Source: a virus. From it: a stretch of 64,000 nucleotides of DNA. The position numbers and the translations under genes are program-made. The stretch lies in IMG/VR virus record IMGVR_UViG_3300035698_019747, positions 64,001-128,000 of that record. One strand, 5' to 3'. Positions 34,211-54,991 of the stretch are shown here, one piece after another. Numbering within the stretch: position 1 is the stretch's first letter; each line of letters begins with the position of its first letter. Below the pieces are notes generated by a model, which made no database searches, was not told the DNA's origin, and saw only the letters and a program-made list of their open reading frames with translations.

Positions 34211-34765
34211 ATGGATTTTAATAGATACTCTAATAGTGACCTAAATAAAGAGATATGTAAAAGTTCAGATGGGTTATTTTATCACCCAAACTTTATCAGT
34301 TCAAGTAAGATAACATTTCTAGAAAAAGTTTTAAGTACAGTAGAGTATAAGATAATTAACGGAAAGCCAATTAAATATTTTGGATTAGAATATTCACATA
34401 ATAAAACTTTACACGATACTATTCAAACAGAACTTTGCGATTTCTTTAATTTAATGAAAGGGATAGATGATACTTTTGATCAAATTTCAATTGAGTTTTA
34501 TAAACAAGATGAAGGACATACTTTTATAAAGGAAAGTAAACTATATGATGATACTGTTGTGATAATTAGTTTAGGCGATTTCAAGTATCATTTTAAAGGT
34601 GAGAAAAATTTTGAAATACTTATGGAAAAGGGTAGTCTATTAGTAATAAGTGGTGAATCTAGAAAACTTACTAGGAGAATACGATATATTAAAAATGAAA
34701 GGTTCAATACTATGGTTATACCTAGAGATGACTTCTACTTATTCACATTTAGAAAATTAAGATAA
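34211..34765 (+). CDS. AlkB-like 2OG-Fe(II) dioxygenase fold, apparently lacking metal ligands
   Basis: YHPNFIS, YFG.EY, FDQISIEFY, IISLG, EKGSLLVISGESR, FTFR; HxD and distal H missing. Confidence 0.65.
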   Translation: MDFNRYSNSDLNKEICKSSDGLFYHPNFISSSKITFLEKVLSTVEYKIINGKPIKYFGLEYSHNKTLHDTIQTELCDFFNLMKGIDDTFDQISIEFYKQDEGHTFIKESKLYDDTVVIISLGDFKYHFKGEKNFEILMEKGSLLVISGESRKLTRRIRYIKNERFNTMVIPRDDFYLFTFRKLR

Positions 34766-38515: not shown

Positions 38516-38552
38516 CGGTTTAAACTTTTTTATTTATAACCTATATAATAGT

Positions 38553-39575: not shown

Positions 39576-39585
39576 AATAAATATT

Positions 39586-39831
39586 ATGAAAAAGTTATTT
39601 TTAATATTACTTAATAAATATACAGATACTAAAAGTGGGCGCATGGAAATACTTAAAATAGTTGATAAAGGGGTATATCGTGAATACTATGAACAAACCA
39701 ACTTTGGTAATCTATATAATGCATATATAGAGTTTTTAATGGCTAATGACCTTATTAAACGTATCACTAAAAATAAAGATTATAGAGAAATAGATATGAT
39801 TAGAAAAGGTATGCATAAGGCATTTGATTAA
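39586..39831 (+). CDS. Hypothetical protein (possible premature TAA; frame continues TIRFLEKPN to 39861)
   Basis: ORF and in-frame continuation. Confidence 0.6.
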   Translation: MKKLFLILLNKYTDTKSGRMEILKIVDKGVYREYYEQTNFGNLYNAYIEFLMANDLIKRITKNKDYREIDMIRKGMHKAFD

Positions 39832-39921
39832 ACTATAAGATTTTTAGAAAAACCCAACTAAGTTCTAAATATTATCCCTATATTTGTACTCTAATCTAAC
39901 AACAGCTAAATATTACATATT

Positions 39922-40110
39922 ATGAGACCGATGAGCGATGAACCAGAAAATATGACAAGAGTTCTTTTACTTGGTAAAAATGGTATAACATTATCATTTC
40001 ATTTTTATAAGGATGGTATGTTTCAGGAAGATAATAGTTCTAATTGGAATTTACCCAGTGAGTTTAAATCTTGGGTGTCTATTAAGGAGTTAAAAAGTAT
40101 AATTTTATAA
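39922..40110 (+). CDS. Small hypothetical protein (DUF551-like)
   Basis: P..MTRVLL...W pattern; TATATTTG at 39879. Confidence 0.5.
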   Translation: MRPMSDEPENMTRVLLLGKNGITLSFHFYKDGMFQEDNSSNWNLPSEFKSWVSIKELKSIIL

Positions 40111-40140
40111 TAAATAAATTACCTAAGTAATTCAATTTAT

Positions 40141-40563
40141 ATGAAAGTTGACCAAACTATAGTTGTACTAAACGACCATATTTGGTATGATAATGGGAAT
40201 GCTAAAACTGTTTGTGTTTCTTCTTGCCTAATGTATTTTGGCATTAGACCAAATAAGTATCATTATACTGGAACTACTAAAAATAGATTTGCATATAAGC
40301 AAATACTTAGACGACTTGGATATAACGTTCGTTCTCGTAAAAGTGAGTTTAAAATAGGTAAATTTTCGAAAGATATGCCTACTATGACTGAACTAAAATC
40401 AAGGCTACGTAAGTCTAATTATACTGATAATGATAAGTTTTTAGTATGTGGTTTTCAGAAAGGAAGTGCACACCTTATGGTACTAGATGGTAAAGGGGAT
40501 ATAATAGTAGATACTGCTCCCCAAAAGAAGTGGAGAATTGAGGATATTTGTTTAGTTTATTAA
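40141..40563 (+). CDS. Hypothetical protein, possible papain-like Cys-His-Asp fold
   Basis: TVCV...AHLMVLD...IVDT. Confidence 0.5.
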   Translation: MKVDQTIVVLNDHIWYDNGNAKTVCVSSCLMYFGIRPNKYHYTGTTKNRFAYKQILRRLGYNVRSRKSEFKIGKFSKDMPTMTELKSRLRKSNYTDNDKFLVCGFQKGSAHLMVLDGKGDIIVDTAPQKKWRIEDICLVY

Positions 40564-40629
40564 TTAATTAACTAAACTTTATCCAAAAATATTAATATAA
40601 GAGAGAGAGAAATTTTATATATATACGTT

Positions 40630-40698
40630 ATGAGAAAAATGATTTTAAATACTACATTATTAAGCATCAGCATTATTTTATTATTAATGGTGTATTGA
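40630..40698 (+). CDS. Leu/Ile attenuator leader peptide MRKMILNTTLLSISIILLLMVY
   Basis: 6 Leu codons, all TTA; 4 Ile codons, all ATT/ATC; directly upstream of tRNA-Leu(UAA) and tRNA-Ile(GAU). Confidence 0.85.
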   Translation: MRKMILNTTLLSISIILLLMVY

Positions 40699-40756
40699 GT
40701 CAGTATTGAAAAATTTTTCAACGCCCGACTCTTAATAAGTGTCGGGTTTATTTTTT
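40693..40756 (+). promoter_or_regulatory. Antiterminator/terminator switch of the Leu/Ile tRNA attenuator
   Basis: Terminator GCCCGAC(40723-29)/GTCGGGT(40741-47) plus TTATTTTTT; an alternative stem GAGTC(40697-701)/GACTC(40727-31) around TTGAAA/TTTCAA overlaps both the leader stop codon and the terminator 5' arm. Confidence 0.8.
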
Positions 40757-40762
40757 ATATAT

Positions 40763-40848
40763 GGTTGAGTGGTGGAATTGGTAGACACGAGGGGTTTAAA
40801 ACCCCTTGGTCAGAAATGATCGTGCGGGTTCGAGTCCCGCCTCGACTA
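40763..40848 (+). tRNA. tRNA-Leu(UAA)
   Basis: GTGGAATTGGTAGACAC D-arm, AGGGG-TTTAAAA-CCCCT anticodon arm, long V-arm, GGTTCGAGTCC. Confidence 0.95.
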
Positions 40849-40866
40849 CTAAAAATCACATATTTT

Positions 40867-40940
40867 AGTCTAGTAGCTCAGTTGGTTAGAGCGTTTCCCT
40901 GATAAGGAAAAGGTCGCAGGTTCAAGTCCTACCTAGACTA
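40867..40940 (+). tRNA. tRNA-Ile(GAU)
   Basis: AGCTCAGTTGGTTAGAGC, TTTCC-CTGATAA-GGAAA, GGTTCAAGTCC. Confidence 0.95.
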
Positions 40941-40959
40941 CTAATTAAATATAATTATT

Positions 40960-41334
40960 ATGACAAGTAGAGATTTTTGCTTTTGGTTACAAGGTATATT
41001 AGAAGTTACCGAGTTAGATAAATTTAATGAAAGACAAACACATATCATTAAAACCCATCTGTCTCTTGTATTTAAACACGAGATTAATACTGATTTATCA
41101 ATGATTAAACATTTTATGGCTAGGGATTTTTGTTTCTGGTTAGATGGGGTATTTAGTGGAACTGAGTTTCTATGTTTAAATAAACCCCAAATGGTGATGA
41201 TTTCTGCTAAATTATCACCAGTATTTAAACATGATATTGATCCTAGTATGGGTGATATTGAACACCAGGAAGGACTAAATAATATACATAGCTGGGATAG
41301 TGACCCCAATTCTGATGTTAATATGAGATGTTAA
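40960..41334 (+). CDS. Hypothetical protein with internal duplication (2x M.xRDFCFWLxG...xLSxVFKHxI)
   Basis: Repeat visible in the protein. Confidence 0.75.
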   Translation: MTSRDFCFWLQGILEVTELDKFNERQTHIIKTHLSLVFKHEINTDLSMIKHFMARDFCFWLDGVFSGTEFLCLNKPQMVMISAKLSPVFKHDIDPSMGDIEHQEGLNNIHSWDSDPNSDVNMRC

Positions 41335-41377
41335 TTCTACAAAGTAGTATATTTATTTTAAGATAAAACCTTCAATT

Positions 41378-41611
41378 ATGATGAAATATAATGAATTACC
41401 CAAAGAAATATTATCCCCTATATCTGGTGATAAAATGAGGTTAATGGACAAGTACTACCCAAATGAATGTTTTATGTCAATAGTTAATAACTATCAAGAT
41501 TCTGCTGAGTTATATGAGAATTCCGCAGCAATGTATTTATCAGAAAATGGAGAAACGATATATGTCCCATTTGATAGTGGTGACATTCCCACTAATGAGA
41601 GTCCAAATTAG
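41378..41611 (+). CDS. Hypothetical protein
   Basis: ORF. Confidence 0.6.
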   Translation: MMKYNELPKEILSPISGDKMRLMDKYYPNECFMSIVNNYQDSAELYENSAAMYLSENGETIYVPFDSGDIPTNESPN

Positions 41612-41743
41612 ATAATGATAAAAGAAATAAAGGGACTTGTATTAGGTTTTTTTATCAAATTATATCGTATTAACCTTCATATAGTTTTGTAATATATATA
41701 TAAATAGTTGTATATTTGCTGATATAATAACTAAAACCACATT

Positions 41744-41917
41744 ATGATGACAGCAAAATATTATAGCAAACCCGAAAACGTATTATTTTATGACCCGATT
41801 ACAAGATTGTTAGCAAGGATATTTGGGGCTAAACACTTTGTAATTAAATGTAGGGTTTGTGGAAAGATACCCACTGAAATATACGGAGATACTTGTTTAA
41901 GCCACAAAACTAAATGA
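41744..41917 (+). CDS. Small Zn-finger protein (57 aa, not in the ORF track)
   Basis: CRVCG...CLSH; downstream of TATATTTG at 41711. Confidence 0.55.
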   Translation: MMTAKYYSKPENVLFYDPITRLLARIFGAKHFVIKCRVCGKIPTEIYGDTCLSHKTK

Positions 41918-42090
41918 GTGTATGTTTTAACATTAACATATAAGATGGATGTGAATGGTACTGTTATCGTGTCTACTGGTTGTTCTATAATGGAGTCAAG
42001 TTACAAAAACTTAGAAATTATGAATACATATAGTAAAAACCAAAAAGCAATGTGATAAATAAACTTTTTTTTTTATTTTAATATAACAAT

Positions 42091-42360
42091 ATGGAAAACG
42101 ATTATTATATTAAACAAAAACATCTAGATAAACTAAAACATTGCTTAAAACTTATAAGTTATAGTGGTGATAGTTTAAAAGAATTATGTGCGGAGGAAAG
42201 GTCAGATATTGTTTATGGATTTGAAATAGGTAATGTAACATCTATGTTGAATAATTGTAAAATTATGATTATGAGTTTAGAAGAAGATATATCATTATAT
42301 TTGAAGCATGTAGATAATGATAGTAATAAAACTAAGTACAATACTTCTGGTGATGATTAA
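42091..42360 (+). CDS. Hypothetical protein
   Basis: ORF after a TAAAC..TAATATAA motif. Confidence 0.7.
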   Translation: MENDYYIKQKHLDKLKHCLKLISYSGDSLKELCAEERSDIVYGFEIGNVTSMLNNCKIMIMSLEEDISLYLKHVDNDSNKTKYNTSGDD

Positions 42361-42409
42361 TATATGAAAAAATTTTTATATATTTGTAGTCTAACTTAAT
42401 AAAACAAAA

Positions 42410-42607
42410 ATGAGTAATTTTTTAGATATAGATAACCTTCCAGATGACTTCAGTGGTGTTGTAATAGTTGATTATTCACCAGTAAGTGAAAGGATGTGGG
42501 ATAAAGGAGAACAAGCACTTGTCAGAGATGGTCAAATAAGACTAAGTGGGTGTTGGTTTAATTTTGATAATAGATATAAAGTTATTTCCAATAATTGGGT
42601 ACAGTGA
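42410..42607 (+). CDS. Hypothetical protein
   Basis: ORF after TATATTTG at 42379. Confidence 0.65.
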   Translation: MSNFLDIDNLPDDFSGVVIVDYSPVSERMWDKGEQALVRDGQIRLSGCWFNFDNRYKVISNNWVQ

Positions 42608-42630
42608 ACTAGATGTTATAGTAATTTATT

Positions 42631-42999
42631 ATGGATAAGGAAAGTATATTTGAATTACAAAAAATAGATTGTAATTGCAATGATTGTATATTTATGATAC
42701 GTGATTTAGAAAAGTATAAAGCTTCTGTCAAATTTCATCACGCTATACAATTGGAATATTTTAACAGTGTTAAATCAAAGTTGATTAAAAGAGCTAACTG
42801 GTGGCGAGTTAAGAAGAATGATTTAGAAAATTTTAATGATATTATGACTGAGGCAGACTCAATGGTTTTTCAATTTGATAAAAATGTAGTGTCTATTAAT
42901 TATGGTGACTGTAGTAAGTTAAATAAGAAAGTTTCTTTTATACCTAATACAATACAATTAGAAACACAAGATTGCTTTAAGCATAGAAGAGAATTATAA
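42631..42999 (+). CDS. Cys-rich hypothetical protein
   Basis: DCNCNDC...YGDC...QDCFKHR. Confidence 0.75.
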   Translation: MDKESIFELQKIDCNCNDCIFMIRDLEKYKASVKFHHAIQLEYFNSVKSKLIKRANWWRVKKNDLENFNDIMTEADSMVFQFDKNVVSINYGDCSKLNKKVSFIPNTIQLETQDCFKHRREL

Positions 43000-43003
43000 A
43001 TAC

Positions 43004-43081
43004 GGTGGGAGATTAGGCTATGTGGTAAGTAGCACAAGCCTTCTAAAAGCTTGGACAGGGGTTCGACTCCCCCTCTCACCA
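43004..43081 (+). tRNA. Atypical tRNA-like RNA; anticodon CUA (amber) or UCU in an expanded loop
   Basis: GGTGGGAG/CTCTCACC acceptor, GCTA/TAGC D-stem, CAAGC-CTTCTAAAA-GCTTG anticodon arm, GGGG-TTCGACT-CCCC T-arm. Confidence 0.7.
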
Positions 43082-43217
43082 CTTATTTTTATATTTATAT
43101 AAACAAAAATACTTAAAATGATATAATGTTAAGTACCCGACTTTGGCGGTCTGGATAAGGGGACTTAAATTTTACCTTTTGAACTATCAGGATTAACAAT
43201 TAAAATTAAAAATTATT

Positions 43218-43922
43218 ATGAAAGATGATTTAGGTAAAAGAATGAAAGAAAACTATGAAATAAGAACTCGTAGTTTTCTACCAAGAAGAACAAATGTCAT
43301 TATCCGTTTAGATGGTAAGGCATTTCACACTTATACAAAAGGATTGGATAAACCCTTTGACTATAAGTTAATGGATGATATGATGGAAACAACTAAATTT
43401 TTATGTGAAAACATACAAGGTTGTAAAATTGGATACACCCAAAGCGATGAAATATCTTTACTCTTAACAGATTATGATAACATCAAAACTTCATCTTGGT
43501 ATGATGGTCAAGTTCAGAAAATCACAAGCGTGTCAGCTAGTTTAGCTACCGCTAAATTTAACCAACTTAGACCAGAGAAATTAGCATTTTTCGATAGCAG
43601 AGTTTTCGTAATTCCTGATAAAGAAGAAGTCGTGAATTATTTTATTTGGAGACAACAAGATGCAACAAGAAATTCACTTTCTATGGCATCTCAGAGTGTT
43701 TATTCCGATAAACAGTTGTTCAAAAAGAATTCTTCTGATAAACAAGAAATGCTAATGGAAAAGGGTATTAACTGGAATGATTATCCAGTGAGTGCTAAAA
43801 GAGGTAGTAGCGTGATTAGAAAAACTTTTGATTACGAAGAAACCACAAGGAGTAAATGGGACTATACTGACATTCCTATCATAACCAAAGATAGGGATTT
43901 TATACTCGATTTACTGCCTTAA
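43218..43922 (+). CDS. thg1: tRNA-His guanylyltransferase Thg1-like protein
   Basis: IIRLDGKAFHTYT, YTQSDEISLL, QKITSVSAS, FDSR, YFIWRQQDATRNS. Confidence 0.95.
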   Translation: MKDDLGKRMKENYEIRTRSFLPRRTNVIIRLDGKAFHTYTKGLDKPFDYKLMDDMMETTKFLCENIQGCKIGYTQSDEISLLLTDYDNIKTSSWYDGQVQKITSVSASLATAKFNQLRPEKLAFFDSRVFVIPDKEEVVNYFIWRQQDATRNSLSMASQSVYSDKQLFKKNSSDKQEMLMEKGINWNDYPVSAKRGSSVIRKTFDYEETTRSKWDYTDIPIITKDRDFILDLLP

Positions 43923-43925
43923 TTA

Positions 43926-43958
43926 AAAAGAGGACTAAATATATTTTAGTCCTCTTTT
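43926..43958. terminator. Bidirectional intrinsic terminator
   Basis: AAAAGAGGACTAAA/TTTAGTCCTCTTTT inverted repeat between convergent genes. Confidence 0.85.
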
Positions 43959-43961
43959 GTT

Positions 43962-44607
43962 TTACTTCTTTTCTTTTTTATCAAATTCTCTTTCTATATA
44001 AAGATAAAGATATTTCAAATAACGTTTTTTTGTTTTATCATTTATATTTTTTTCAATATGCAACCATAAAGGATGTTCTTTTATACCTTTTATCGCCTCT
44101 TTTATATTTTTTGGTTTTCCACTCATTGCTATATCAGACAAACTCTGTGCAAATGCCATTATTTCATCTTTATTTGAGAAATATGCTTTCATATCATTTA
44201 CATCACCTAAGAACTCACCGTGTGTTTTAACTGTCTTATTCTTCATTTGTCCATGATGTACAAACTCATGTTTTAAAATATGCAGAAACAGAATTATATC
44301 AGAGATTATAATTTTGCTTCTTACCAATAACCATTCTTATGTTATTCGTCTTAGGGTTAGTTAATCCAAATATAGGATTTATTAGGATAGAATTTGCTTC
44401 CTTTCGTTTTTTATCACTATCTAAATCTGATAAAAATTCCTTTTGGTCAACTATTTCTACATTATATTTATCACATACTTCCTTTAATTCTAAAAAGCTT
44501 ATATTTGGAACACCTTTTATTTTGGAGTGAAGCTCATTAGATAATGCTTTATAATCTCCTGTTTCCCATTCAACGATAGATTCGGTATATTTAACTAAAT
44601 ATTTCAT
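43962..44607 (-). pseudogene. Zn-metallopeptidase-like protein (HEFVH...EIMAFA) split by a frameshift near 44310-44327
   Basis: N-half MKYLVKYTES..., C-half LKHEFVHHGQ...YFSNKDEIMAFA in an overlapping frame. Confidence 0.6.
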
Positions 44608-44652
44608 ATATAACTTACATTTTTAATATATATTAAAAAAAACTCAACAATT

Positions 44653-44835
44653 ATGATACCAATAACAATACCATATGAATTATTAATTATAGTAATATTA
44701 ACAATGATGATTCTAGCAGCAGGAGTTGAGGATGTTGCGTGGAAGGCATTCTTTTTTTTTCTTTTCATATTATCATTTGTGTTCTTAATCACAAAAATAT
44801 CTGGATTGAACTTAATTATATGGGGAGCATTTTAG
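44653..44835 (+). CDS. Small 2-TM membrane protein
   Basis: Two hydrophobic helices. Confidence 0.55.
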   Translation: MIPITIPYELLIIVILTMMILAAGVEDVAWKAFFFFLFILSFVFLITKISGLNLIIWGAF

Positions 44836-44997
44836 AAATTTTATGTTGATATATACAAGTATCAAAAATTAGACAACTTCGCCTACTGACTCTACATCAA
44901 AGTGTGGGTCTACACACCTATTTAAATTAGTATTTAACAAGGTTTGTCTTAAACTCACACCCCCCCACTATTTAAATATTCTAATGTTTTATTATTG

Positions 44998-45720
44998 TTA
45001 TTTTGTGATATTTTTCTTTAAATCTAATAAGAACCTATATAATTTAATAATACGAGCATAAGGTGTGGAATTTCTAAAAGCATTTAAATCTTTCATTATG
45101 AATATATTACTCTTATCAAATAATTTTTTCCAATCATTATAAACCCCCATATATTCTGTATTTTTTTTAGCAAAATTCTCAAAATTTGGATACGATATAT
45201 TACCACCTTTAAATATTTCAGAAGGGGTTATTTTACTCATATTTAGAGAACCATCACTGTCTATAATATTTTTAGCATCTCTAAATGCCCTTTCTAATTC
45301 TTCAATATCATTTAAATGTAGTACAGCTTGTTCTGCGAAAACTGATAAAGGTTGCACTAATACCTTATTATCTAATGCGGGTATTATCAATTCTTCAAAG
45401 TATGATAAGGCTTTATCTGCATTTTCTCTCTTTTTTATATCAATTAAATCTCGTCTTGTTACTTGAATGAGTTTATCTAAGTTTTTTATGAATTCTTCTG
45501 TTTCATTATTCTTAATCCAAGCACTAAACCCCTCTCCATCTAAATTAAAGTCAGTGTCTAGGTATTCATCTTGCTTTGAATTCCAATCAAAATTAAATAG
45601 GAAAAAATGACCATATTCGTCTTTTAATGTGGATTTAACATCTTCTGGAAATGAATTTATGTCTATATTATTCACATTTCCCTCATTTATATGTTCTTGT
45701 TTTGATAATAAATATTTCAT
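44998..45720 (-). CDS. Hypothetical protein with capsid-targeting-like N-terminus
   Basis: MKYLLSKQEHINE. Confidence 0.7.
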   Translation of the reverse strand: MKYLLSKQEHINEGNVNNIDINSFPEDVKSTLKDEYGHFFLFNFDWNSKQDEYLDTDFNLDGEGFSAWIKNNETEEFIKNLDKLIQVTRRDLIDIKKRENADKALSYFEELIIPALDNKVLVQPLSVFAEQAVLHLNDIEELERAFRDAKNIIDSDGSLNMSKITPSEIFKGGNISYPNFENFAKKNTEYMGVYNDWKKLFDKSNIFIMKDLNAFRNSTPYARIIKLYRFLLDLKKNITK

Positions 45721-46209
45721 TTATTTTAATAGTTTTTTTATAATACTTTCCGAGTTATTTAAAAGGTATTCTAACCCAAAGTGTTTAGGCTCTATTTCTA
45801 ATAACTCATCATATGTTACCCATTTATAACTCTCTGTTTCCCAATTTAATACTGGTTCAAAATCATCCACTAGTGCTACAAAGTTATGATAAGCAAAAAC
45901 CACTTTTTCATTTTTCTTAACTTCAAATATAGCGGCAGGTATAATTTTATGGATTTCTCCTTTATATCCAGACTCTTCTACTAATTCATTTATAGCACCT
46001 TGTATAGGACTATTGGTTTCTTGGTCATCAAGCTTACCACCCCATATACCAAATGTATTTGGTTCATTTACATACTTACTTCTAAGAGCAATTAATATCT
46101 TTCCTGATGTTGATATGGGCAAAATTCCCGCGCCAATATTCCCCCAGAAATTATCTCCTTCATTATTATCAAATACTTCGTAATTTTCAAATTTTTTTAT
46201 ATATTTCAT
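45721..46209 (-). CDS. Nudix hydrolase with capsid-targeting-like N-terminus
   Basis: MKYIKKFENY; GAGIL, WGGKLDDQETNSPIQGAINELVEESG, LNWETESYKW. Confidence 0.85.
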   Translation of the reverse strand: MKYIKKFENYEVFDNNEGDNFWGNIGAGILPISTSGKILIALRSKYVNEPNTFGIWGGKLDDQETNSPIQGAINELVEESGYKGEIHKIIPAAIFEVKKNEKVVFAYHNFVALVDDFEPVLNWETESYKWVTYDELLEIEPKHFGLEYLLNNSESIIKKLLK

Positions 46210-46242
46210 ATTTAACCTTTTTTTCACTTTTTTTAATTATAT

Positions 46243-46440
46243 TTGTTTATGAAAAATTTCATAATAAAATATATTTACAAAAATAATAAAGCCTTTTTCA
46301 CTTTAATCGGATTGTTAATCGGATCAGTAATTGGTTACTTTATGGGACAATTACATTTAGAGCATACTTACATTATCTCAATACCATCATCAATTATTGT
46401 ATTAGCATATTTAGATATAAACGGTGGGTTAGATTTATAA
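46243..46440 (+). CDS. Small 2-TM membrane protein
   Basis: Two hydrophobic segments. Confidence 0.55.
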   Translation: MFMKNFIIKYIYKNNKAFFTLIGLLIGSVIGYFMGQLHLEHTYIISIPSSIIVLAYLDINGGLDL

Positions 46441-46451
46441 ATAAATTAAAA

Positions 46452-46940
46452 TTATACTTCTGCGCCAATAGACTTAGCAACAATTGATATCGCCATAAGA
46501 ACAGCAAATGCTATAAACCATGGCTGTGCATTATATGCTGATTGCTCTATTATTGTAATTGTAGCAGAAACAATAGCCGTTATAATACCAGAACCCAGTG
46601 CTATATTACCTAATATATTAGAAATTTTTCTAGCTATTTTTTCTACTTTATTATCTTTATCCATAGATTCTTTTAATGATATATCAAATTCACTTTTCTT
46701 AAAATCACTCATATTTATTGATGCTAAGCTATCAATAACACCATTATCGTTATTAACACCCTTTAATATACTCATAACTTCAGTCTTCACTTTATTGATA
46801 ATATCTACTAACATATTAGCATGCTCTCCTATAAATGGTATTCTTTTAATAACATTCATTATATTACCTTCTAGTAAAATTTCATAATTATTTTTTTTAA
46901 GTTCTCTTTCAAATATTTTATATGTTTTTAAATTATTCAT
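46452..46940 (-). CDS. Protein with capsid-targeting-like N-terminus and C-terminal TM hairpin
   Basis: MNNLKTYKIFE; two C-terminal hydrophobic helices; adjacent to the amidase. Confidence 0.65.
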   Translation of the reverse strand: MNNLKTYKIFERELKKNNYEILLEGNIMNVIKRIPFIGEHANMLVDIINKVKTEVMSILKGVNNDNGVIDSLASINMSDFKKSEFDISLKESMDKDNKVEKIARKISNILGNIALGSGIITAIVSATITIIEQSAYNAQPWFIAFAVLMAISIVAKSIGAEV

Positions 46941-46952
46941 ATTAAGTTTTTT

Positions 46953-47702
46953 TTATCCAATTAGCTTTTGGTCATCAATCTGCTGTATAGCTTCATAGTG
47001 ATATTTAGCAATCTTTTTTCTTCCCTCTTCACTCATTAATATTTCCTTACATTCCCTAGGATTAGTCATAAAGAAATTCTCTGTTAGAATAGCTGGCATA
47101 ACAGTTTTAGTTAATACCCAAAACTTTGCTTCCTTATCCACATCACCATCTCTTGCATCAGTTCTTAATTTACCTAGTGGAAATTCTTCTCTCCATGTTT
47201 TGGCGAATGTATCAGCTACCTTATCACTTAATGTTTGCCCTGGACTAGTATAAACACTCCAACCTCTAGCATTTTGTCTATTAAATGCATCACTGTGTAT
47301 AGAAACATAAATCATTATTCTCTTTTTCTTTCCCTTTTTTTGTTCATTTACATTTAACATATTAGCCAAATCAGTTCTTATTTTAAGAGGTGTATCTAAC
47401 TGATTATCTATAAGATTCACATAAGATATGTTTCTCTCTTCTAATTCCTTTGTGATTCTTAAAACAAAATCTCTATTAGACTCACCTTCAAAAAGCTGAG
47501 TGCCATCAGGCCATATTGGGGAACGTTTCCCTTCGGTTTGGTAGATACCATCAATGACACCACCATGACCACTATCTAAAACCCATATATAATTTGAAGA
47601 ACCCTCAAAAACAGTGTATTGATTCCCCCTATATTCTTTTGAATATTTAGTTTGGTTTGATCTTATTATTTTTGGTATTCTTGGTATTTTCCACGTTTTC
47701 AT
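46953..47702 (-). CDS. N-acetylmuramoyl-L-alanine amidase (Amidase_3), probable endolysin
   Basis: VLDSGHGG, FEG, SIHSDA, MPAILTENFFMTNPRE. Confidence 0.92.
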   Translation of the reverse strand: MKTWKIPRIPKIIRSNQTKYSKEYRGNQYTVFEGSSNYIWVLDSGHGGVIDGIYQTEGKRSPIWPDGTQLFEGESNRDFVLRITKELEERNISYVNLIDNQLDTPLKIRTDLANMLNVNEQKKGKKKRIMIYVSIHSDAFNRQNARGWSVYTSPGQTLSDKVADTFAKTWREEFPLGKLRTDARDGDVDKEAKFWVLTKTVMPAILTENFFMTNPRECKEILMSEEGRKKIAKYHYEAIQQIDDQKLIG

Positions 47703-47735
47703 ATCATATCATATTATTTTTATATTAAGTTATAC

Positions 47736-48116
47736 TTACTCCGAATCCGAAGTCATTTTTTTAAATAAGTCTTGAATTGCTATTTTAGTACTCATTACTA
47801 TATAATCATATAAACTATTCGTTGAACCTATTTCCTCTGGGGAAGAAGTGAAATGAACAATATCACTCAAAACACTATCTATATCATTCATATTCTTTAA
47901 ATAGAAATCATACACATCACTGTCGTTTACTAGTCCTATTATAGTAGTTTCACTATCACCTATATAACTTTTCATTGTTTTTAATTGTAAGCTACTATCA
48001 CCACTATTGGTACTCTTTTTTAAGATATCAATCAATTCATTCTGAACTTCTTCAAAGTCATCTGAAATTTTAACCTTAGTTGCTAAATCCTCTCTTATTA
48101 TTGTGAACTTCTTCAT
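47736..48116 (-). CDS. Hypothetical protein
   Basis: MKKFTIIRE start. Confidence 0.7.
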   Translation of the reverse strand: MKKFTIIREDLATKVKISDDFEEVQNELIDILKKSTNSGDSSLQLKTMKSYIGDSETTIIGLVNDSDVYDFYLKNMNDIDSVLSDIVHFTSSPEEIGSTNSLYDYIVMSTKIAIQDLFKKMTSDSE

Positions 48117-48361
48117 GTGTATCTTATATTATAGTTATTTAATTTATATTTTTCTAACTTTGATATGATATAATCTATATCAGTATCAGACCAAGTTATA
48201 TTGCCCCCTAATGGGTATCGTTCATTATCTAGAATTTTGATAAACCTATTAGCCACCTTCACTCTCTTTTCATTTAATTTATCCTTAAAAGATTTGTCTA
48301 TTCCATCGATAGTTTCTTGGTTTATATTTAGTTCAAAAAATTTTTTTAATTTCTTGGGCAT
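48113..48361 (-). CDS. Hypothetical protein
   Basis: MPKKLKKFFE start; TTAATATATA at 48388-48379. Confidence 0.65.
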   Translation of the reverse strand: MPKKLKKFFELNINQETIDGIDKSFKDKLNEKRVKVANRFIKILDNERYPLGGNITWSDTDIDYIISKLEKYKLNNYNIRYT

Positions 48362-48398
48362 ATTTCTTTTCTTTCTTTTATATATTAAAAAAAAATTG

Positions 48399-48406
48399 TA
48401 TATTTG
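48399..48406 (+). promoter_or_regulatory. Bacteroidota sigma-70 -7 element TATATTTG (representative copy)
   Basis: Also upstream of genes at 2610(-), 7193(-), 13368, 14227(-), 35459, 39879, 41711, 42379, 46238, 51788(-), 58734. Confidence 0.8.
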
Positions 48407-48409
48407 TAT

Positions 48410-48615
48410 AAAATAGCCAGAGGTTGTATCGCTCCACGGAGAGGAAATTCAGGACAACATTGCTCACGGAAGGAGGGTTAGACAAAAGCCCGTTTGCACT
48501 TCCCAGGTTGCAACACGAACAGACTTAGTAGGTGAGCAATACTTTTATAGTCGGGTTAGTGGCAAATAGGTAAATGATACATTAAAACAGGATTCTGATT
48601 ACGCTCAGCTATTTT
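48410..48615 (+). ncRNA. rnpB: Minimal RNase P RNA (type A catalytic core, S-domain nearly absent)
   Basis: CR-I GAGGAAATTCAGGA (48441-54) and CR-V ACAGGATTCTGATTA (48587-601) form P4 with bulged U and compensatory changes; P1, P2, P5+CAA, P6, P7, P15-P17, L15 GGU and CR-IV TAGGTAAATG all identified; TATATTTG promoter at 48399. Confidence 0.9.
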
Positions 48616-48654
48616 TTATTTTTAAACAAAAAAATTAAATACTAATATATACAT

Positions 48655-49203
48655 ATGAACAATAAAACAATCGCCATTTTTGATTTTGATCAAACACTTT
48701 ACATGTGTCCACTCCCAACACCTGAGAATCGAGAGAAGCTATCTAAAGCTATAGATTATACAAGAAGTGGGTGGTGGGGCAGAGGTGAAAGCCTTAACTT
48801 AGATGTATTTGATATACTTCCCAACCCACACATTAAGAGTCAGTATGATATACATTCTGAAATTGGTAATAAACGATTTATGCTAACTGGTAGAATCTTT
48901 CGACTTAAAGAAGCTGTTAGAAATGTGTTTAGAAAAGATGGTTTTAGTTTCGATGGGGAATATTATGCAGATGGTAGAAGAACTATAGATTATAAATTAG
49001 CTATTATTGATGAATTAGTTGAAACACACAATCCATCAACTATATATTTCTATGATGATAGAGAAGAACATATTCAAGAATTTCGTACTAAAGGGGACGA
49101 GTTAAAGGATACTAAAGGAATTGACTTTTACCAGTACCAAGTTTTTATTGATGGTTCTGGTATTATTGAAGTTCCATATGGACAGAAAGGGGTGGTCGAA
49201 TAG
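48655..49203 (+). CDS. HAD phosphatase (PNKP / Swiss-army-knife RNA-repair-like)
   Basis: FDFDQTL, MLTGR, YK, FYDDREEH. Confidence 0.8.
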   Translation: MNNKTIAIFDFDQTLYMCPLPTPENREKLSKAIDYTRSGWWGRGESLNLDVFDILPNPHIKSQYDIHSEIGNKRFMLTGRIFRLKEAVRNVFRKDGFSFDGEYYADGRRTIDYKLAIIDELVETHNPSTIYFYDDREEHIQEFRTKGDELKDTKGIDFYQYQVFIDGSGIIEVPYGQKGVVE

Positions 49204-49254
49204 ACCCCCTTATTTTTCACCCCATGTTTTACCACAAGATCTACATCTCTCAAT

Positions 49255-49455
49255 TTAACCACCCATTAACTCATCTACGGAAGAGTGTTTACATATATAT
49301 TGCGCTTCATATTCTTTCATTTTAATGTCATTTTTATCACCTACCATTATAATCTTGCGATAATCACTTGTCTCACAACCCTCTTTGTGTTCTTTCTTTA
49401 GTGTATCATATCTCTTTTTACTTATCATAATATCCAATCTAATTTCCTCATTCAT
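49255..49455 (-). CDS. Hypothetical protein
   Basis: ORF in a co-oriented run. Confidence 0.55.
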   Translation of the reverse strand: MNEEIRLDIMISKKRYDTLKKEHKEGCETSDYRKIIMVGDKNDIKMKEYEAQYICKHSSVDELMGG

Positions 49456-49757
49456 TTATCAACACTACTTGATAATATCTTATCAATATTAGCTTTCCTT
49501 GTCTCATATATATTTTTCTCAACATATCTTCCGAGTATTGAATTACATTCTTCACCAATACTGTTATAATAAAATTCTTCTATTATAATTAATTCATAAT
49601 TTTCATTTACCCCCTTAGTTACTTTTTTAACAGTTAACTTATTCATATCTATGCCTTCTGGCCAGTCAAAATATGGATTAACTGATATAACTCTCCTAAT
49701 GCTTATTATATCCCCCTTACATATTTCTCCTATGATAACATCACTATTTTCTTTCAT
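49452..49757 (-). CDS. Hypothetical protein
   Basis: Likely start MKENSD; C-terminal RKANIDKIL motif. Confidence 0.6.
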   Translation of the reverse strand: MKENSDVIIGEICKGDIISIRRVISVNPYFDWPEGIDMNKLTVKKVTKGVNENYELIIIEEFYYNSIGEECNSILGRYVEKNIYETRKANIDKILSSSVDK

Positions 49758-49767
49758 GTGTATTATA

Positions 49768-51102
49768 TTATTTTTTGATTGAATGTTTAACACGCACTTC
49801 CTTCAATCTATTTGGTGTTAAATATATAATATTCTCTAAATAATTTAATTTTTTACCTATTCTGTAAGTGAATATATAAGGAGTGAATTCTTCGCCTCTA
49901 ATCTGTTTATTGAAATCTATATTTATATCCAACACTTCACTCATAGTTTTTAAAGGTTTTTTATCAACTGCAATACCAACTACTAAATCACCTATTACAT
50001 GTTCCCCATTACTATATAATACAGAATCCCTACTCCCCTTTTTATTTTTTATATATACATATCCTCTATAAACAAGTTCATATCTAAATTCCACTTTTTT
50101 AAGTTCAAAATTTATAAGTGATTGTATATAAACATCATCTTTTTTAATAACACTGCCGTCTTGCACATATACAGGATAAGGCGAATTATCTATGATATAT
50201 TTCATCATACTTGGTATTGTGCCATTTATAGTTCCTTTAGTTGTGAAGTAATCACTTAAATTATTTTCAAATCTAACTGATTTTTTAAGATTTTCAATTT
50301 TATTTTTATTTATTATTAATTTAGTGACATATCTGCTTATATTTTTTATAGGATTAGTCATCTCTTCCCATTCATCAAAATGTCCGTTATTATGTGATTT
50401 ATATCTAAATGGACTTATTTTATAATTATTTGATAATTTAGATGCATCTATTTCTAATTTTAAGAAACTTGTTGGAGCATCCCCTAGATAAGAGTTCATC
50501 ATTTTATTTCTGGTAAAAGATATCTTACCACTATTTGAAGCTATATAAGGTGAAAGCTTATCATTATCTATAATAAACTTAAATTTATTATTATCTATAA
50601 TATGATATAAATTCCCATAATTCACACCTTCAGTTATATTTGTGTTTTCTATATTTGTTATAATTGATGTTCTACCCCTTAGTTGATAAGCATAATCACT
50701 TGGTATATCTCGTTCTAAGAAACGCTTGTTTATAATTGCTCTTTTATTTGTAGCACCAGTTCTCATATATTTCTTATCCTCAGCATCAGTATTCACATGA
50801 GTGATATATATTTTTGTTGGTTTTATATTCTTTAAGAAATCTACTGTTATATCTGTTACTGTTCTTAAAATACCTATTGCATCACTTGTCCCCAATTCTT
50901 CATATTGAGTTTTATAATTTGTCACATCATAACTTCTAGCATACTCGCCTTCAATAGCATCACCTAAATTCTCAAAATTAACGATAAATTCTAAATCATC
51001 TTTACCCTTAAATGTATATGAATAATTACCCATATCATCTTTTATAAATGATGTGAAATCATACTTCTCATTTATTTGATCATATTTAAATAAGTATTTC
51101 AT
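49768..51102 (-). CDS. Multidomain protein with capsid-targeting-like N-terminus and an ART-like middle domain
   Basis: MKYLFKYDQINE; NLYH...ISFTRN...LEIDASKL...DEWEE. Confidence 0.6.
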   Translation of the reverse strand: MKYLFKYDQINEKYDFTSFIKDDMGNYSYTFKGKDDLEFIVNFENLGDAIEGEYARSYDVTNYKTQYEELGTSDAIGILRTVTDITVDFLKNIKPTKIYITHVNTDAEDKKYMRTGATNKRAIINKRFLERDIPSDYAYQLRGRTSIITNIENTNITEGVNYGNLYHIIDNNKFKFIIDNDKLSPYIASNSGKISFTRNKMMNSYLGDAPTSFLKLEIDASKLSNNYKISPFRYKSHNNGHFDEWEEMTNPIKNISRYVTKLIINKNKIENLKKSVRFENNLSDYFTTKGTINGTIPSMMKYIIDNSPYPVYVQDGSVIKKDDVYIQSLINFELKKVEFRYELVYRGYVYIKNKKGSRDSVLYSNGEHVIGDLVVGIAVDKKPLKTMSEVLDINIDFNKQIRGEEFTPYIFTYRIGKKLNYLENIIYLTPNRLKEVRVKHSIKK

Positions 51103-51106
51103 AACA

Positions 51107-51116
51107 TATATATTAA
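51107..51116 (-). promoter_or_regulatory. Putative late promoter TTAATATATA (representative copy)
   Basis: Found shortly upstream of starts at 1003, 8189, 25659, 35434, 37364, 44607, 48361, 51102, 54991, 58693, 63209. Confidence 0.6.
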
Positions 51117-51139
51117 AAATATATATTATTATTTATTTG

Positions 51140-51211
51140 CACGCATGGTGAGACTCGAACTCACATCAACGGTTTTGGAGACCGTTATCCTACCAATTGG
51201 ACGACACACAT
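51140..51211 (-). tRNA. tRNA-Trp(CCA)
   Basis: ACGGT-CTCCAAA-ACCGT, GTTCGAGTC; GU-rich acceptor stem. Confidence 0.9.
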
Positions 51212-51219
51212 ATTTCTTG

Positions 51220-51313
51220 TCTAGAGAACGGGATTTGAACCCGTGGAGCATACTATCTGTGTACACTCAGCCGTTTCCAAGACGACTTGCTTAAACCACT
51301 CGCACATCTCTAG
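51220..51313 (-). tRNA. tRNA with UGG anticodon (Pro) on a long-variable-arm body
   Basis: CTAGAGA/TCTCTAG-A, GAGTGGTTTAA D-loop, GTCGT-CTTGGAA-ACGGC, 8-bp V-arm GAGTGTAC/GTATGCTC, GGTTCAAATCC. Confidence 0.85.
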
Positions 51314-51317
51314 TTTG

Positions 51318-51390
51318 TCGGGAAGGTAGGAATCGAACCTACTAACTGATGCTTCCAATGCACCCGTGCTTAAACCTTAGTCACTTCCCG
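51318..51390 (-). tRNA. tRNA-Pro(UGG), A37, irregular D-arm
   Basis: CGGGAAG/CTTCCCG-A, GGTGC-ATTGGAA-GCATC, GGTTCGATTCC. Confidence 0.85.
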
Positions 51391-51398
51391 ATATTTTG

Positions 51399-51472
51399 TA
51401 TAGTAGGTGGGATTCGAACCCACGTGCTCCACATCCCAAATGTGGCGAGATAAACCTCTCCTCTACTACTAT
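51399..51472 (-). tRNA. tRNA-Pro(UGG), G37 but A1-U72
   Basis: ATAGTAG/CTACTAT-A, CCACA-TTTGGGA-TGTGG, GGTTCGAATCC. Confidence 0.88.
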
Positions 51473-51481
51473 ATGTATTTG

Positions 51482-51552
51482 TTGGGCTAACAGGACTCGA
51501 ACCTATAATCACTCCTTCAAAGGGAGCTGTTATGCCATTTAACTATAGCCCA
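51482..51552 (-). tRNA. tRNA-Gln(UUG)
   Basis: TGGGCTA/TAGCCCA, GCTCC-CTTTGAA-GGAGT, GGTTCGAGTCC. Confidence 0.93.
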
Positions 51553-51554
51553 AT

Positions 51555-51585
51555 AAAAAACCCACTCGGTTATGAGCGGGTTTTT
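51555..51585 (-). terminator. Second terminator of the Gln/Pro/Trp tRNA attenuator
   Basis: AAAAACCCGCTC-ATAACC-GAGTGGGTTTTTT on the minus strand. Confidence 0.85.
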
Positions 51586-51604
51586 CTGTTATATATTGTA
51601 TATA

Positions 51605-51637
51605 ACAGAAAAGTCCTCTCATAAATGAGAGGACTTT
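51605..51637 (-). terminator. First terminator of the Gln/Pro/Trp tRNA attenuator
   Basis: AAAGTCCTCTCAT/ATGAGAGGACTTT followed by TCTGTT. Confidence 0.75.
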
Positions 51638-51658
51638 GCTTTAAAAGTTTTAAAAATC

Positions 51659-51742
51659 TCAAGCAATAGTCTCCCATCCGAATAATCTCGGTTGCGGTTG
51701 CCATTGCTGGTTGATAGTGATATTTAAAACTAAATTTTTCAT
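51659..51742 (-). CDS. Gln/Trp/Pro attenuator leader peptide MKNLVLNITINQQWQPQPRLFGWETIA
   Basis: Run CAG CAA TGG CAA CCG CAA CCG directly upstream of the tRNA-Gln/Pro/Pro/Pro/Trp cluster; N-terminus resembles the Leu/Ile leader. Confidence 0.88.
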   Translation of the reverse strand: MKNLVLNITINQQWQPQPRLFGWETIA

Positions 51743-51810
51743 TACTGTATATATATTATTTTTGTTGTTCCTTTCTTAATTATAGTGCAAATATATGAAA
51801 AAGTTTTATA

Positions 51811-52182
51811 TTATCTGCTAATAAATCTAAAATTTTTGAAATTTATGTAATATGGTGCTTTTTGTGTCTTATATTCCCCATCTAAATCTAAAAAGTGATA
51901 TAACCCTGTCTTATTCATTACTTGACATACAGGGATGTTACTTGAAAAATTACCACCAAAAAAGAAATGTACACCACCCAATTTATCACTCATGTTAATT
52001 CTATTTGATATGGAATATATGTTACCCAACTCACTGATGATAAAATCACCCACAGATATATTTTTAACCCATTCTTTCTGTATATTTTTATTAAATACAC
52101 ATTCTATAATATGTTGTTTAGATAACCCTAAGAATTCCTCAGGTAAGTGTTTTATTAAATATTCCCTATTAAATGTTGTCAT
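51811..52182 (-). CDS. Hypothetical protein
   Basis: ORF. Confidence 0.65.
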   Translation of the reverse strand: MTTFNREYLIKHLPEEFLGLSKQHIIECVFNKNIQKEWVKNISVGDFIISELGNIYSISNRINMSDKLGGVHFFFGGNFSSNIPVCQVMNKTGLYHFLDLDGEYKTQKAPYYINFKNFRFISR

Positions 52183-52234
52183 AATATATGTAATTTTATT
52201 ATGTTATATATGTAATAAATATGTTAAAGTTTAC

Positions 52235-54991
52235 TTATTTGTATATAACATACATATTATCTAAATCATCATCTTCGTAATTATACTCTATAAAATCATT
52301 GATACCTAATTGACCATAGTAATCTGAACCTATAATATATTCAGCTAACTCTTTTTCATATATATAATTAGTTAAAATGTTGGCTATTTCCACATCATCA
52401 AAACCCTGATCACTAAGATGATATTTTGAATCAGTAGTGGCACTTTCTATTTCCTCATTATATAACTCCTCTGCCTTTTCATCAATATCACTATCTGAGT
52501 ATTCCATATATTCAGAATCATCATCCTCTATTTTCTCTATTTCCTCATCAATCTCTTCAATATTATTTAGTATTTCAGATATATGTTCTTTATATTTAGT
52601 TACCTCAGAAGTTATATTATCTTCTAATTTTTTCAGAATAGTATTTAACCTATTCTTTCTATCTAAATCCTCACTATTTATTATAAGATTTTTTATTTTA
52701 TCTTTTTTTGAATTTAAATCCATATTAAGTGAAGCAATAGTATCTTTAAGTGATTCATTATTTTTAACAAAATCACTTCTTCTTATATTTAAATCCCCAC
52801 ACCTTTGCTCACCCTCTTCTGTTAGTGTTTTTTCTATATTATTATTACTTGGGTCTAATTTTATTTCTTCTACAAAATCCAATTCACTTCTCACATGTTC
52901 ATTAGCGAAACGTTCGCCATTAATACAATATTGAGGTATAAATTCTGGGAGGTGACCACTTTCTATTTGAGATAATACAGAATTCATAGCAGCCTCTTCT
53001 ATATCATCATATAAAATAACATTCCATGTTTTACCTGCTTCATCAACTTCTATATGTATTCTATAAAAAAGTTCAAACTCATAGTCATTTTCAACAACAT
53101 TTTTAAGTAATAAATACTTTCTATAATCACCACTTTCATAATCACCTTCATCTAATTCACCATTCTCATAGAGATACTTAAATAATGGTTTAGCATATTC
53201 ATCACCATTATACTTAGAATAATTATCATCACTATACTTATATTTTGATTGAACAACCCTATCTATTAGTTCCTGATAAGTCTTATTGGACATTGATCTT
53301 AATAAATGTGAAATAGTTTTATATTCAGATGGTATATCCTCAATTGAATTACCTGTTATAAACCCATTACCATCAATATTATGCATATAGAAATCATTAA
53401 AACCTGTTGATATTTTAATGTCTGATATTAAAAAAGGGTCAAAATAATCCCTAGAAGAGTCAAATATAATATAATAATAGAATTTGTTAATTTCTTGTGA
53501 ACCATTACTTGAAATAAAATATTCTGATAGATTATAAGTCTTGGTAGATATGTTTCTAAAAGCATCTACTCTTCTTGTATTATAATTAATTGGATCTTTA
53601 ATAATAAATTCAAATAGGTATATATCACCTACCTTACTAGAGGTTATATCTAAACCTTGTTGTTGTAGGTCTGAATTATATAATTCTTCAATTTCATTTT
53701 TTAAATCTACTTCTATTTTCATATATTTTTCAGTTATATCCTTAGCTTTTAATATATCCTTATTATTGACTATAATGTCTATAATATACTTATCAGGAAT
53801 AGTAGTATCAAAATTTGTCAAATTCTGATCAGAAAACTCATTATATGACACACCATTATATATATACATCTTTATTTTATATTGAAATCCTTTCTGATTT
53901 ACATTTTTGGAAAAATCATATATTATATAGAAATTATAATCACCCACTTCATCACCACCATAACTAAATGGGTTAACAGTATTGAATTTATGTATATTAA
54001 ACTGTTTTTCATTACTTACCCCTAAGCACATTATATCTGGATTATTAGAAACCTTTAATTGTTCCCCACTATCACCTTTTATTAACCCATTCTTAAACTC
54101 AAGTGTTGTCATACCAAAATTTAAGTCATCTAACATATTAATGACGTTATCTGGTAAATTATCAGATAAATTATCATCATTTTTATTATGTATATTAGTA
54201 ATCATACCCATATCATTTGTGGTAAAACCAACTAGGTGTAGGTTATCATATATTTCTAAGCTATAATCCCATATAAAAAATTGTCTTTTAAAACCACTTG
54301 TGTGATTATTGAATGAAGAATTACTTGTTACTATACACCATGATGAAGCACCTAATTTAACGGATGCATCATAGTCAGTTATCTCTGCTAATATGAGACC
54401 ATCATCAATGTTTTGATGCATAAGTTTAGCACCATCTAGTTCAGTTATATCCTTTATAGTTTTTGGATAAGACTTATCACTGTTCTTAGTGATAAAATCT
54501 TTGAGGTAATCTAATATACTACCCCTTGTTTTAAACTTTGATATTTTAACAGACAACTGTTTTAATAAACCCATTGAATGTAGTTCAATAGATATGTTTC
54601 TGAAATCATTATCCTTTATATCAATTAAATTCTTTTGTTCCCTAGGTAATATATTATAAACTTTTTTGATACGGTTGTTATTATCTATTGTATTTATTTC
54701 ATCCTTTAACAATTCAAAGCTATTATACTTTAATGGCTCTTTACTAAGTAATGAAGAATGTTCTTTTAACCATTTTAAGAGATCAACTATTTCGTCCATT
54801 GACACTTCCTGAGTAAACATATACTTAGTCATTAAACCTAAGTAATTAATATTTTTAAATATTTTAATGTTGTTTTTTTTCAACTCTACATAAGAAGGGT
54901 TGTTTATACTAATACCATCTTTTTTTAAAATAGCTAAGGCTTGTTGCTTATTTTCTAATATCTTTTTACTAAATTTTCTGATGAATTGCAT
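52235..54991 (-). CDS. Large protein with capsid-targeting-like N-terminus, G-x-x-x-WCI domain and C-terminal coiled coil
   Basis: MQFIRKFSKKILE; ASVKLGASSWCI...FNNH...QFFIWD...IHNKNDD, shared with ORF 61473-63209. Confidence 0.7.
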   Translation of the reverse strand: MQFIRKFSKKILENKQQALAILKKDGISINNPSYVELKKNNIKIFKNINYLGLMTKYMFTQEVSMDEIVDLLKWLKEHSSLLSKEPLKYNSFELLKDEINTIDNNNRIKKVYNILPREQKNLIDIKDNDFRNISIELHSMGLLKQLSVKISKFKTRGSILDYLKDFITKNSDKSYPKTIKDITELDGAKLMHQNIDDGLILAEITDYDASVKLGASSWCIVTSNSSFNNHTSGFKRQFFIWDYSLEIYDNLHLVGFTTNDMGMITNIHNKNDDNLSDNLPDNVINMLDDLNFGMTTLEFKNGLIKGDSGEQLKVSNNPDIMCLGVSNEKQFNIHKFNTVNPFSYGGDEVGDYNFYIIYDFSKNVNQKGFQYKIKMYIYNGVSYNEFSDQNLTNFDTTIPDKYIIDIIVNNKDILKAKDITEKYMKIEVDLKNEIEELYNSDLQQQGLDITSSKVGDIYLFEFIIKDPINYNTRRVDAFRNISTKTYNLSEYFISSNGSQEINKFYYYIIFDSSRDYFDPFLISDIKISTGFNDFYMHNIDGNGFITGNSIEDIPSEYKTISHLLRSMSNKTYQELIDRVVQSKYKYSDDNYSKYNGDEYAKPLFKYLYENGELDEGDYESGDYRKYLLLKNVVENDYEFELFYRIHIEVDEAGKTWNVILYDDIEEAAMNSVLSQIESGHLPEFIPQYCINGERFANEHVRSELDFVEEIKLDPSNNNIEKTLTEEGEQRCGDLNIRRSDFVKNNESLKDTIASLNMDLNSKKDKIKNLIINSEDLDRKNRLNTILKKLEDNITSEVTKYKEHISEILNNIEEIDEEIEKIEDDDSEYMEYSDSDIDEKAEELYNEEIESATTDSKYHLSDQGFDDVEIANILTNYIYEKELAEYIIGSDYYGQLGINDFIEYNYEDDDLDNMYVIYK

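Follow-up and report, generated by a model that had tools for sequence, protein, structure and literature searches.

Each multi-tRNA cluster in the 64,000-nucleotide window analysed here (bases 64001-128000 of the 152,402-bp linear virus record IMGVR_UViG_3300035698_019747) is preceded by a short leader open reading frame (ORF) and at least one intrinsic terminator, and the codons enriched in each leader are those read by the tRNAs encoded downstream. We consider it very likely that these leader units control the phage tRNA operons by ribosome-mediated transcription attenuation, and the virus probably makes a given set of tRNAs only when ribosomes slow on the codons that this set reads. Ribosome-mediated attenuation is itself classical; what appears to be new is that tRNA genes are the target, together with the feedback logic that this entails. 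The leaders, terminators and tRNA blocks described in a previous sequence-only reading of this DNA were confirmed, and comparison with related phage sequences indicates that the feature is real and widespread.

The first putative sensor, leader 1 (40630-40698, plus strand), has 22 codons, including six for Leu, all TTA, and four for Ile, all ATT or ATC, and lies before tRNA-Leu(UAA) (40763-40849, plus) and tRNA-Ile(GAU) (40867-40941, plus). Leader 2, the second sensor (51742-51659, minus strand), has 27 codons, among them four for Gln, two for Pro (both CCG) and two for Trp, with a Gln/Trp/Pro control block at codons 12-18. Downstream, all on the minus strand, lie tRNA-Gln(UUG) (51481-51552), three tRNA-Pro(UGG) genes (51398-51472, 51318-51390 and 51219-51313) and tRNA-Trp(CCA) (51139-51211); the second tRNA-Pro was missed by ARAGORN and matched by Rfam only, its anticodon being read off the sequence, and the third has a long variable arm. 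The earlier claim of two leaders with codons matching the downstream tRNAs therefore stands, and a third can be added at genome positions 53831-53908, outside the window. Of its 25 codons, seven specify Ser and two are rare Arg codons, CGT and CGC, and it is likewise followed by a terminator. Its block (genome 53980-54452), the sole further multi-tRNA block of the genome, encodes tRNA-Arg(ACG) and four tRNA-Ser (GCT, TGA, GGA and CGA); the two Arg codons are the rare ones read by ACG, not the common AGA. Matching leaders thus precede 3/3 multi-tRNA blocks.

Relative to genome codon usage, codons readable by the leader's own block make up 10/21 in leader 1 (2.1 expected, P=1.4e-5), 8/26 in leader 2 (1.2 expected, P=1.6e-5) and 9/24 in leader 3 (2.1 expected, P=1.1e-4). 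Matches to the other blocks of the genome were near expectation, the highest cross-match reaching P=0.04. Short ORFs precede about one-third of the other terminators in this genome and are thus frequent by chance, so that the evidence lies in the codon match. The lone tRNA with a CUA anticodon (43007) has no leader/terminator unit upstream, and an exact 21-mer from the start region of leaders 2 and 3 had no match in viral contigs.

Some of the tRNA genes are unusual in themselves. The third tRNA-Pro(UGG) combines a type-II-like variable arm with a normal Pro acceptor (C1-G72, A73), the bodies of the three tRNA-Pro(UGG) genes differ greatly, and further tRNA-Pro(UGG) genes, 91 nt long, are present in loci L056, L058, L059, L061 and L062. 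The four tRNA-Ser genes of block 3 form two near-duplicate pairs differing in anticodon (GCT/GGA and TGA/CGA), which points to tandem duplication followed by anticodon change.

Leader units were called in relatives by a rule blind to amino-acid content: a terminator of -10 kcal/mol or lower had to lie within 190 nt before a tRNA, with the end of a best-start ORF, 12-45 codons long, 5-75 nt ahead of that terminator. False calls were retained in the scored sets. Around 57 units were found in some 20 phage records, whose hosts, where known, are Bacteroidota. The discovery set comprised 43 scorable units from LR745206, LR756502, LR756501, the cultured phages phi4:1 and Panino, and IMG/VR and metagenome contigs. 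The match between leader and own operon had a mean z of 3.1, against 0.02±0.23 when permuted (0/100,000), and the result held when the set was reduced to one unit per operon type (0/2000). Within genomes, the true assignment of leaders to operons ranked first in six (1/6 four times, 1/120 and 1/720); in a seventh it was among the best two of 40,320. Since the discovery set had been reached partly through tRNA and terminator queries, a validation set was built by ClpC homology alone. It yielded 17 units in 5/8 tRNA-bearing records, with z of 2.75 against 0.0±0.35 (0/100,000), while three ClpC-picked records with at most seven tRNAs contained no matching leader unit. The co-variation of leader codons with downstream anticodons, proposed from this one genome, was thus found in both sets.

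The match extends to isoacceptors. In operons encoding only Ile-TAT, ATA accounts for 11/13 Ile codons of the leaders, and in those with only ATY readers, ATY accounts for 9/10; for Arg, CGN makes up 12/14 in CGN-only operons and AGR 7/8 in AGR-only operons. In the six best-sampled genomes the operons divide 16-20 amino acids among them with little overlap, and three units of phi4:1 cover its 19 called amino acids; the seven covered in the present record would fit a half-complete genome. Homologous leaders keep their frame with synonymous changes (61/153 identical-residue pairs in the Gln/Pro/Asp family). By similarity, leader 2 clusters with four Gln/Pro/Asp leaders and carries Trp at their Asp-codon sites, and its operon contains tRNA-Trp where theirs have tRNA-Asp. 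This suggests that leader and operon changed together, with the caveat that homology of such short peptides is uncertain.

Matching units were absent from six phages that differ in host or type, namely Bacteroides phage DAC19, the IAS virus, Bacillus phage JBP901, Streptomyces phage Braelyn (one non-matching call), Vibrio phage 2.275.O and Aeromonas phage BUCT695, and from L026/L027. Neither was any found at 85 chromosomal tRNA blocks in a sample of about 35 Bacteroidota genomes, where the sole calls corresponded to the C-terminus of EF-Tu before tRNA-Trp. L007 and L008 (around 15200-15800) contain nested units, in which a poly-Gln leader and terminator lie inside a longer tRNA run, apparently without a promoter of their own, and would gate the tRNA-Gln genes only. 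L311 (G132:C34, around 6900-9500) is a Bacteroidota chromosome with a tandem array of repeats of about 365 bp, in each of which a copied tRNA 3' end and a terminator accompany a short ORF that by eye resembles a GIY-YIG nuclease.

The terminators and the RNA pairings were examined in the same units. Unit 1 has a terminator at 40724-40756 (plus; hairpin of -10.8 kcal/mol and U tract), and its region 2 (40697-40701, plus) overlaps the leader stop codon and pairs with the terminator 5' arm at 40727-40731. In unit 2, region 2 (51662-51677, minus) pairs with the 5' arm of terminator 1 (51606-51637, minus; -15.1 kcal/mol and U tract); a perfect, AT-rich spacer hairpin (51581-51611, minus) lies between this and terminator 2 (51555-51583, minus), directly before tRNA-Gln. 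A terminator after each leader, as originally proposed, was therefore found in both units, but unit 2 has two rather than one. The leader-terminator pairing of unit 2 reaches -13.5 kcal/mol, with 3% of swapped controls as good, and that of unit 3, at -11.0 kcal/mol, beats 97% of swaps. Across relatives, antiterminator duplexes with the own terminator averaged -12.1 kcal/mol against -8.0±0.33 for swapped ones in the discovery set and -12.35 against -8.15±0.6 in the validation set (0/100,000 in each).

We then moved a ribosome footprint along the leaders codon by codon and folded the RNA as it stands while the terminator 3' arm is still to be transcribed. Unit 3 follows the textbook profile: the terminator arm is sequestered at 0.97 when the ribosome is at codons 8-14, the Ser/Arg block, and at 0 with it at the stop codon or absent. 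Unit 2 shows 0.82 at codons 9-19, falling to 0.32 at the stop, and 0.08 when no ribosome is present. Over 50 units, matched codons amount to 54% before the switch boundary and 21% after it (Wilcoxon P=8e-10); their excess is greatest 12-19 codons ahead of the stop and disappears over the final eight codons. Judging from these profiles, matched codons are placed where a stalled ribosome would free the antiterminator. In unit 2 the 3' arm of terminator 1, once freed, pairs with the 5' arm of terminator 2 (-10.9 kcal/mol, 0.25% of shuffles as good), and this tandem-terminator relay is the lowest-energy intermediate with the ribosome at codons 12-18, not at the stop. The likeness to the trp, his, leu and ilv attenuators that had been noted is thus borne out by both the antiterminator, which in the pooled sets beats swaps, and the placement of the control codons.

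We propose the following sequence of events. RNA polymerase, presumably that of the host, would start at a promoter just before a leader of 15-40 codons, which a ribosome would then translate. When decoding is fast, the ribosome would reach the last eight codons and the stop and cover region 2, the terminator would fold and no tRNA would be made. When functional aminoacyl-tRNA is scarce, the ribosome would pause 10-20 codons before the stop, leaving region 2 to pair with the 5' arm of the terminator, so that transcription would run on into the tRNA block; the fold is seen in silico, and the kinetics are presumed. Unit 2 has a further step, in which terminator 2 would be disarmed by the 3' arm that terminator 1 releases. 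Since a unit senses the very tRNA that it produces, it would act as a negative-feedback loop, and a full phage genome would split nearly all 20 amino acids among three to eight such loops. The trigger is likely to be a host tRNA pool that is lost or overloaded during infection, including through nuclease cleavage. A ribosome would pause alike on uncharged, outnumbered or cleaved tRNA, but only a tRNA that is outnumbered or cleaved could be made good by supplying more of it.

Several results weigh against this interpretation. The predicted pairing of the terminator 5' arm with the leader 3' end, which held for unit 2, was no better than swaps in unit 1, where the 5-bp helix reaches -7.7 kcal/mol and 59% of swaps are as good; among single units, only half (20/40) beat 95% of swaps. 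When folded with the footprint, unit 1 has its arm sequestered at 0.66 through the last Leu and 0.02 at the stop, but the value is still 0.63 without a ribosome. An anti-antiterminator (1:2), which would bring about termination when the leader is not translated, is therefore seen in units 2 and 3 (0.08 and 0.0) and not in unit 1, and the pooled mean is 0.47. Moreover, the completed terminator is favoured at equilibrium for every ribosome position, which implies that the switch must be kinetic. Classical attenuators are likewise held to switch kinetically. Ser leaders contain AGY codons (11/27) even when no AGY-reading tRNA was called, although ARAGORN may miss genes. The over-use of G-ending codons in AT-rich DNA (CCG makes up 14/33, compared with 1.7% in this genome, and GTG 12/18, compared with 14%) speaks in favour of attenuation, but part of this excess may serve RNA pairing. 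Finally, the units are kin, and the pooled P values overstate their independence.

Among other explanations, the one closest to ours differs in the trigger only: the same attenuators might read amino-acid starvation or host physiology, with the tRNAs acting as a fitness aid and not as counter-defence. Classical leaders do sense amino-acid supply, uncharged and missing tRNAs look alike to a ribosome, and Ser leaders sample both Ser codon boxes whatever anticodons were called; yet a lack of amino acid would not be cured by more tRNA, and the choice of Ile and Arg codons tracks the specific anticodon, not the amino acid alone. The phage also carries genes of the tRNA maturation or repair type, encoding Thg1, a HAD/SAK domain protein and a CCA-adding enzyme. 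We regard starvation as a possible trigger but not the favoured one, and isoacceptor tracking together with these genes makes us lean towards repair of the tRNA pool. That the units serve specifically against host defences is a tentative suggestion. So is, with similar reserve, the idea that large Bacteroidota phages have a modular surveillance panel in which attenuators report the loss of individual isoacceptors, or of their wobble modification in view of the excess of G-ending codons, and the phage replaces only the tRNAs under attack.

It seems improbable that the leaders merely couple tRNA transcription to the general translation rate (slowdown, antibiotics or toxins), with codon content secondary. 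A pause anywhere before region 2 is enough to open the antiterminator, as units 1 and 2 show by being permissive already at their first codons, and a cyanobacterial trn array does respond to general translational stress (PMC8421152, PMC10272220), but such coupling would explain neither why a leader matches its own block alone nor how the operons come to share out the amino acids. Still less probable is a reading in which the ORFs encode micro-proteins or are untranslated by-products and the terminators act as constitutive ends or as signals for processing, with a phage antiterminator or internal promoters allowing expression beyond them. The Leu/Ile-rich leader 1, hydrophobic like a membrane peptide and with a weak antiterminator, would agree with this, as would the frequency of short ORFs before other terminators and the AT-rich promoter-like DNA between terminator and tRNA in some units. 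However, the peptides vary from unit to unit and yet follow the anticodons, one relative having a Leu-rich, mostly TTA leader before a lone tRNA-Leu(TAA), and both the complementarity to the own terminator and the codon-position profile are far beyond controls. As to chance, a genome of 28% guanine-cytosine (GC) content in which TTA and ATT are common codons may be expected to give Leu/Ile-rich short ORFs and hairpins. The Gln/Pro/Trp and Ser/Arg(CGN) leaders, though, use rare GC-rich codons, and no unit occurs at the 85 host blocks of similar base composition. The permutation tests in the discovery and validation sets rule chance out, and we assign it a negligible probability.

Ribosome-mediated attenuation, which we favour, is best known from amino-acid operons (trpL, hisL, pheL and leuL, the multivalent thrL and ilvL, and pheM before pheST). 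These share with the phage units a short leader ORF with control codons, a region 2 at the ORF end, a terminator 20-30 nt past the stop and mutually exclusive folds. The phage units differ in being viral, in regulating tRNAs rather than biosynthetic enzymes, transporters or synthetases, in a leader set that covers nearly all amino acids per genome and in an output that is the sensed molecule. The host phylum uses the same kind of control for its trp genes (Bacteroid-trp leader, RF01692), and the Flavobacterium trp leader shares the TATATTTGC promoter element and the N-terminal style. No Rfam leader family reached threshold; the Thr and Phe leaders scored 28-30 bits against 55, through their hairpins only. 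Given this and the tRNA targets, the units are not members of known leader families. No riboswitch family in Rfam reached threshold either, and a T-box search gave no match at the gathering score across the window, nor any at E<=1 within 39500-53000. T-box riboswitches (PMC4695836) likewise report the charging of a specific tRNA through a terminator/antiterminator switch, but bind the tRNA directly through a specifier loop without translation, whereas the phage signal is an ORF with several codon types.

The cyanobacterial trn operon (L-array), which TrcR represses and which comes on under translational stress (PMC8421152, PMC10272220), is similarly a silent mobile tRNA array switched on when translation is impaired. 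It relies on a ribbon-helix-helix repressor and responds as a whole array, not codon-specifically, while the phage design would need no repressor; the words attenuation and leader are absent from PMC8421152. Phage tRNAs can also replace depleted host tRNAs in counter-defence, as with the T5 tRNA-Lys that counters PARIS (PMC11464382) and the hypothesis that phage tRNAs evade anticodon nucleases (PMC10264068). These papers concern nuclease-resistant tRNA sequences and describe no demand-driven switch, and PMC10264068 mentions neither attenuation nor promoters. The statement that attenuators had not been described for phage tRNA genes agrees with our literature search, which found no account of attenuation acting on tRNA genes, most subscription papers lying outside it.

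The purpose of phage tRNAs has been debated for more than 50 years, between codon compensation and replacement of depleted host tRNAs (PMC10264068). If tRNA genes turn on only at slow decoding, phage tRNAs would be a conditional backup, and the switch would read out directly which tRNAs fail in infection. Attenuation, so far a matter of amino-acid enzymes, would then also apply to tRNA genes and in viruses, where it provides feedback on the sensed molecule. Should the surveillance panel exist, it would represent an inducible, codon-specific counter-defence against tRNA-cleaving immunity, and the operon groupings would record which tRNAs hosts target. Cultured pairs are open to testing, namely Cellulophaga phage phi4:1 with C. 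baltica, and Maribacter phage Panino. Leaders of this type also point to tRNA genes overlooked by gene finders, and they might be put to use as biosensors for particular codons.

Upstream of the leaders, the motif TATATATAC, to which we ascribe a putative promoter role, lies just before leader 1 (40618-40626, plus) and leader 2 (51747-51755, minus). It had been taken, together with similar N-termini, as a sign that the leaders form one family. This did not hold: AATATATA occurs within 80 nt upstream of 42/185 ORFs of the genome, with peaks at 4 and 19-21 nt before the ATG, and is therefore a general phage promoter-like motif, so that TATATATAC was rejected as a hallmark of the leaders. The N-termini reflect a general A-rich Lys/Asn/Thr/Ile start found in most leaders and in the host trp leader. 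About 45 nt upstream of leader 2 there is also a TATATTTGC element (51787-51795, minus), which we take to be the primary-sigma -7 promoter element of Bacteroidota (consensus TAnnTTTG), and leader 3 has the same upstream elements. In phi4:1 (L010), Panino (L032) and L057, a mere 4-5 nt separate TAnnTTTG from the leader ATG, which would place these leaders on leaderless mRNA; one phi4:1 leader begins with GTG.

The virus record has 28.3% GC, uses the standard code and is 56% complete according to CheckV. Terminase, tail sheath, baseplate and NrdA genes identify it as a large myovirus. A conserved ClpC stretch has its best matches mostly in Bacteroidota and the tRNAs match Cellulophaga phages and three phages of 635-735 kb; from these matches and the TAnnTTTG elements in the genome we infer a Bacteroidota host. 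An NrdA query of genome contigs returned no loci, and RtcB, the PF09414 RNA ligase and RNase P (RF00010) had no match in this 56%-complete record.

Other genes of the record concern RNA as well. The lone CUA-anticodon tRNA (43007-43080, plus) is of the amber suppressor type and is labelled Pyl by ARAGORN; TAG is among the stops used by the genome (9/106 long ORFs). It is followed by a gene for Thg1 tRNA-His guanylyltransferase (43218-43922). The tRNA nucleotidyltransferase (CCA-adding enzyme) is encoded at genome positions 33508-34632, and most tRNA genes here lack an encoded CCA. An intergenic RNA at 48410-48615 (plus) has motifs similar to the conserved regions I and V of RNase P, with no Rfam support at E<=1, and a gene with the HAD/SAK RNA-repair domain begins after it at 48655. 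Elsewhere in the window, a 761-aa helicase with weak PHROG matches is encoded at 3753-6038 (minus), and a GDP-mannose 4,6-dehydratase gene (38505-39575, plus), probably part of a sugar-modification cluster, lies just upstream of unit 1.

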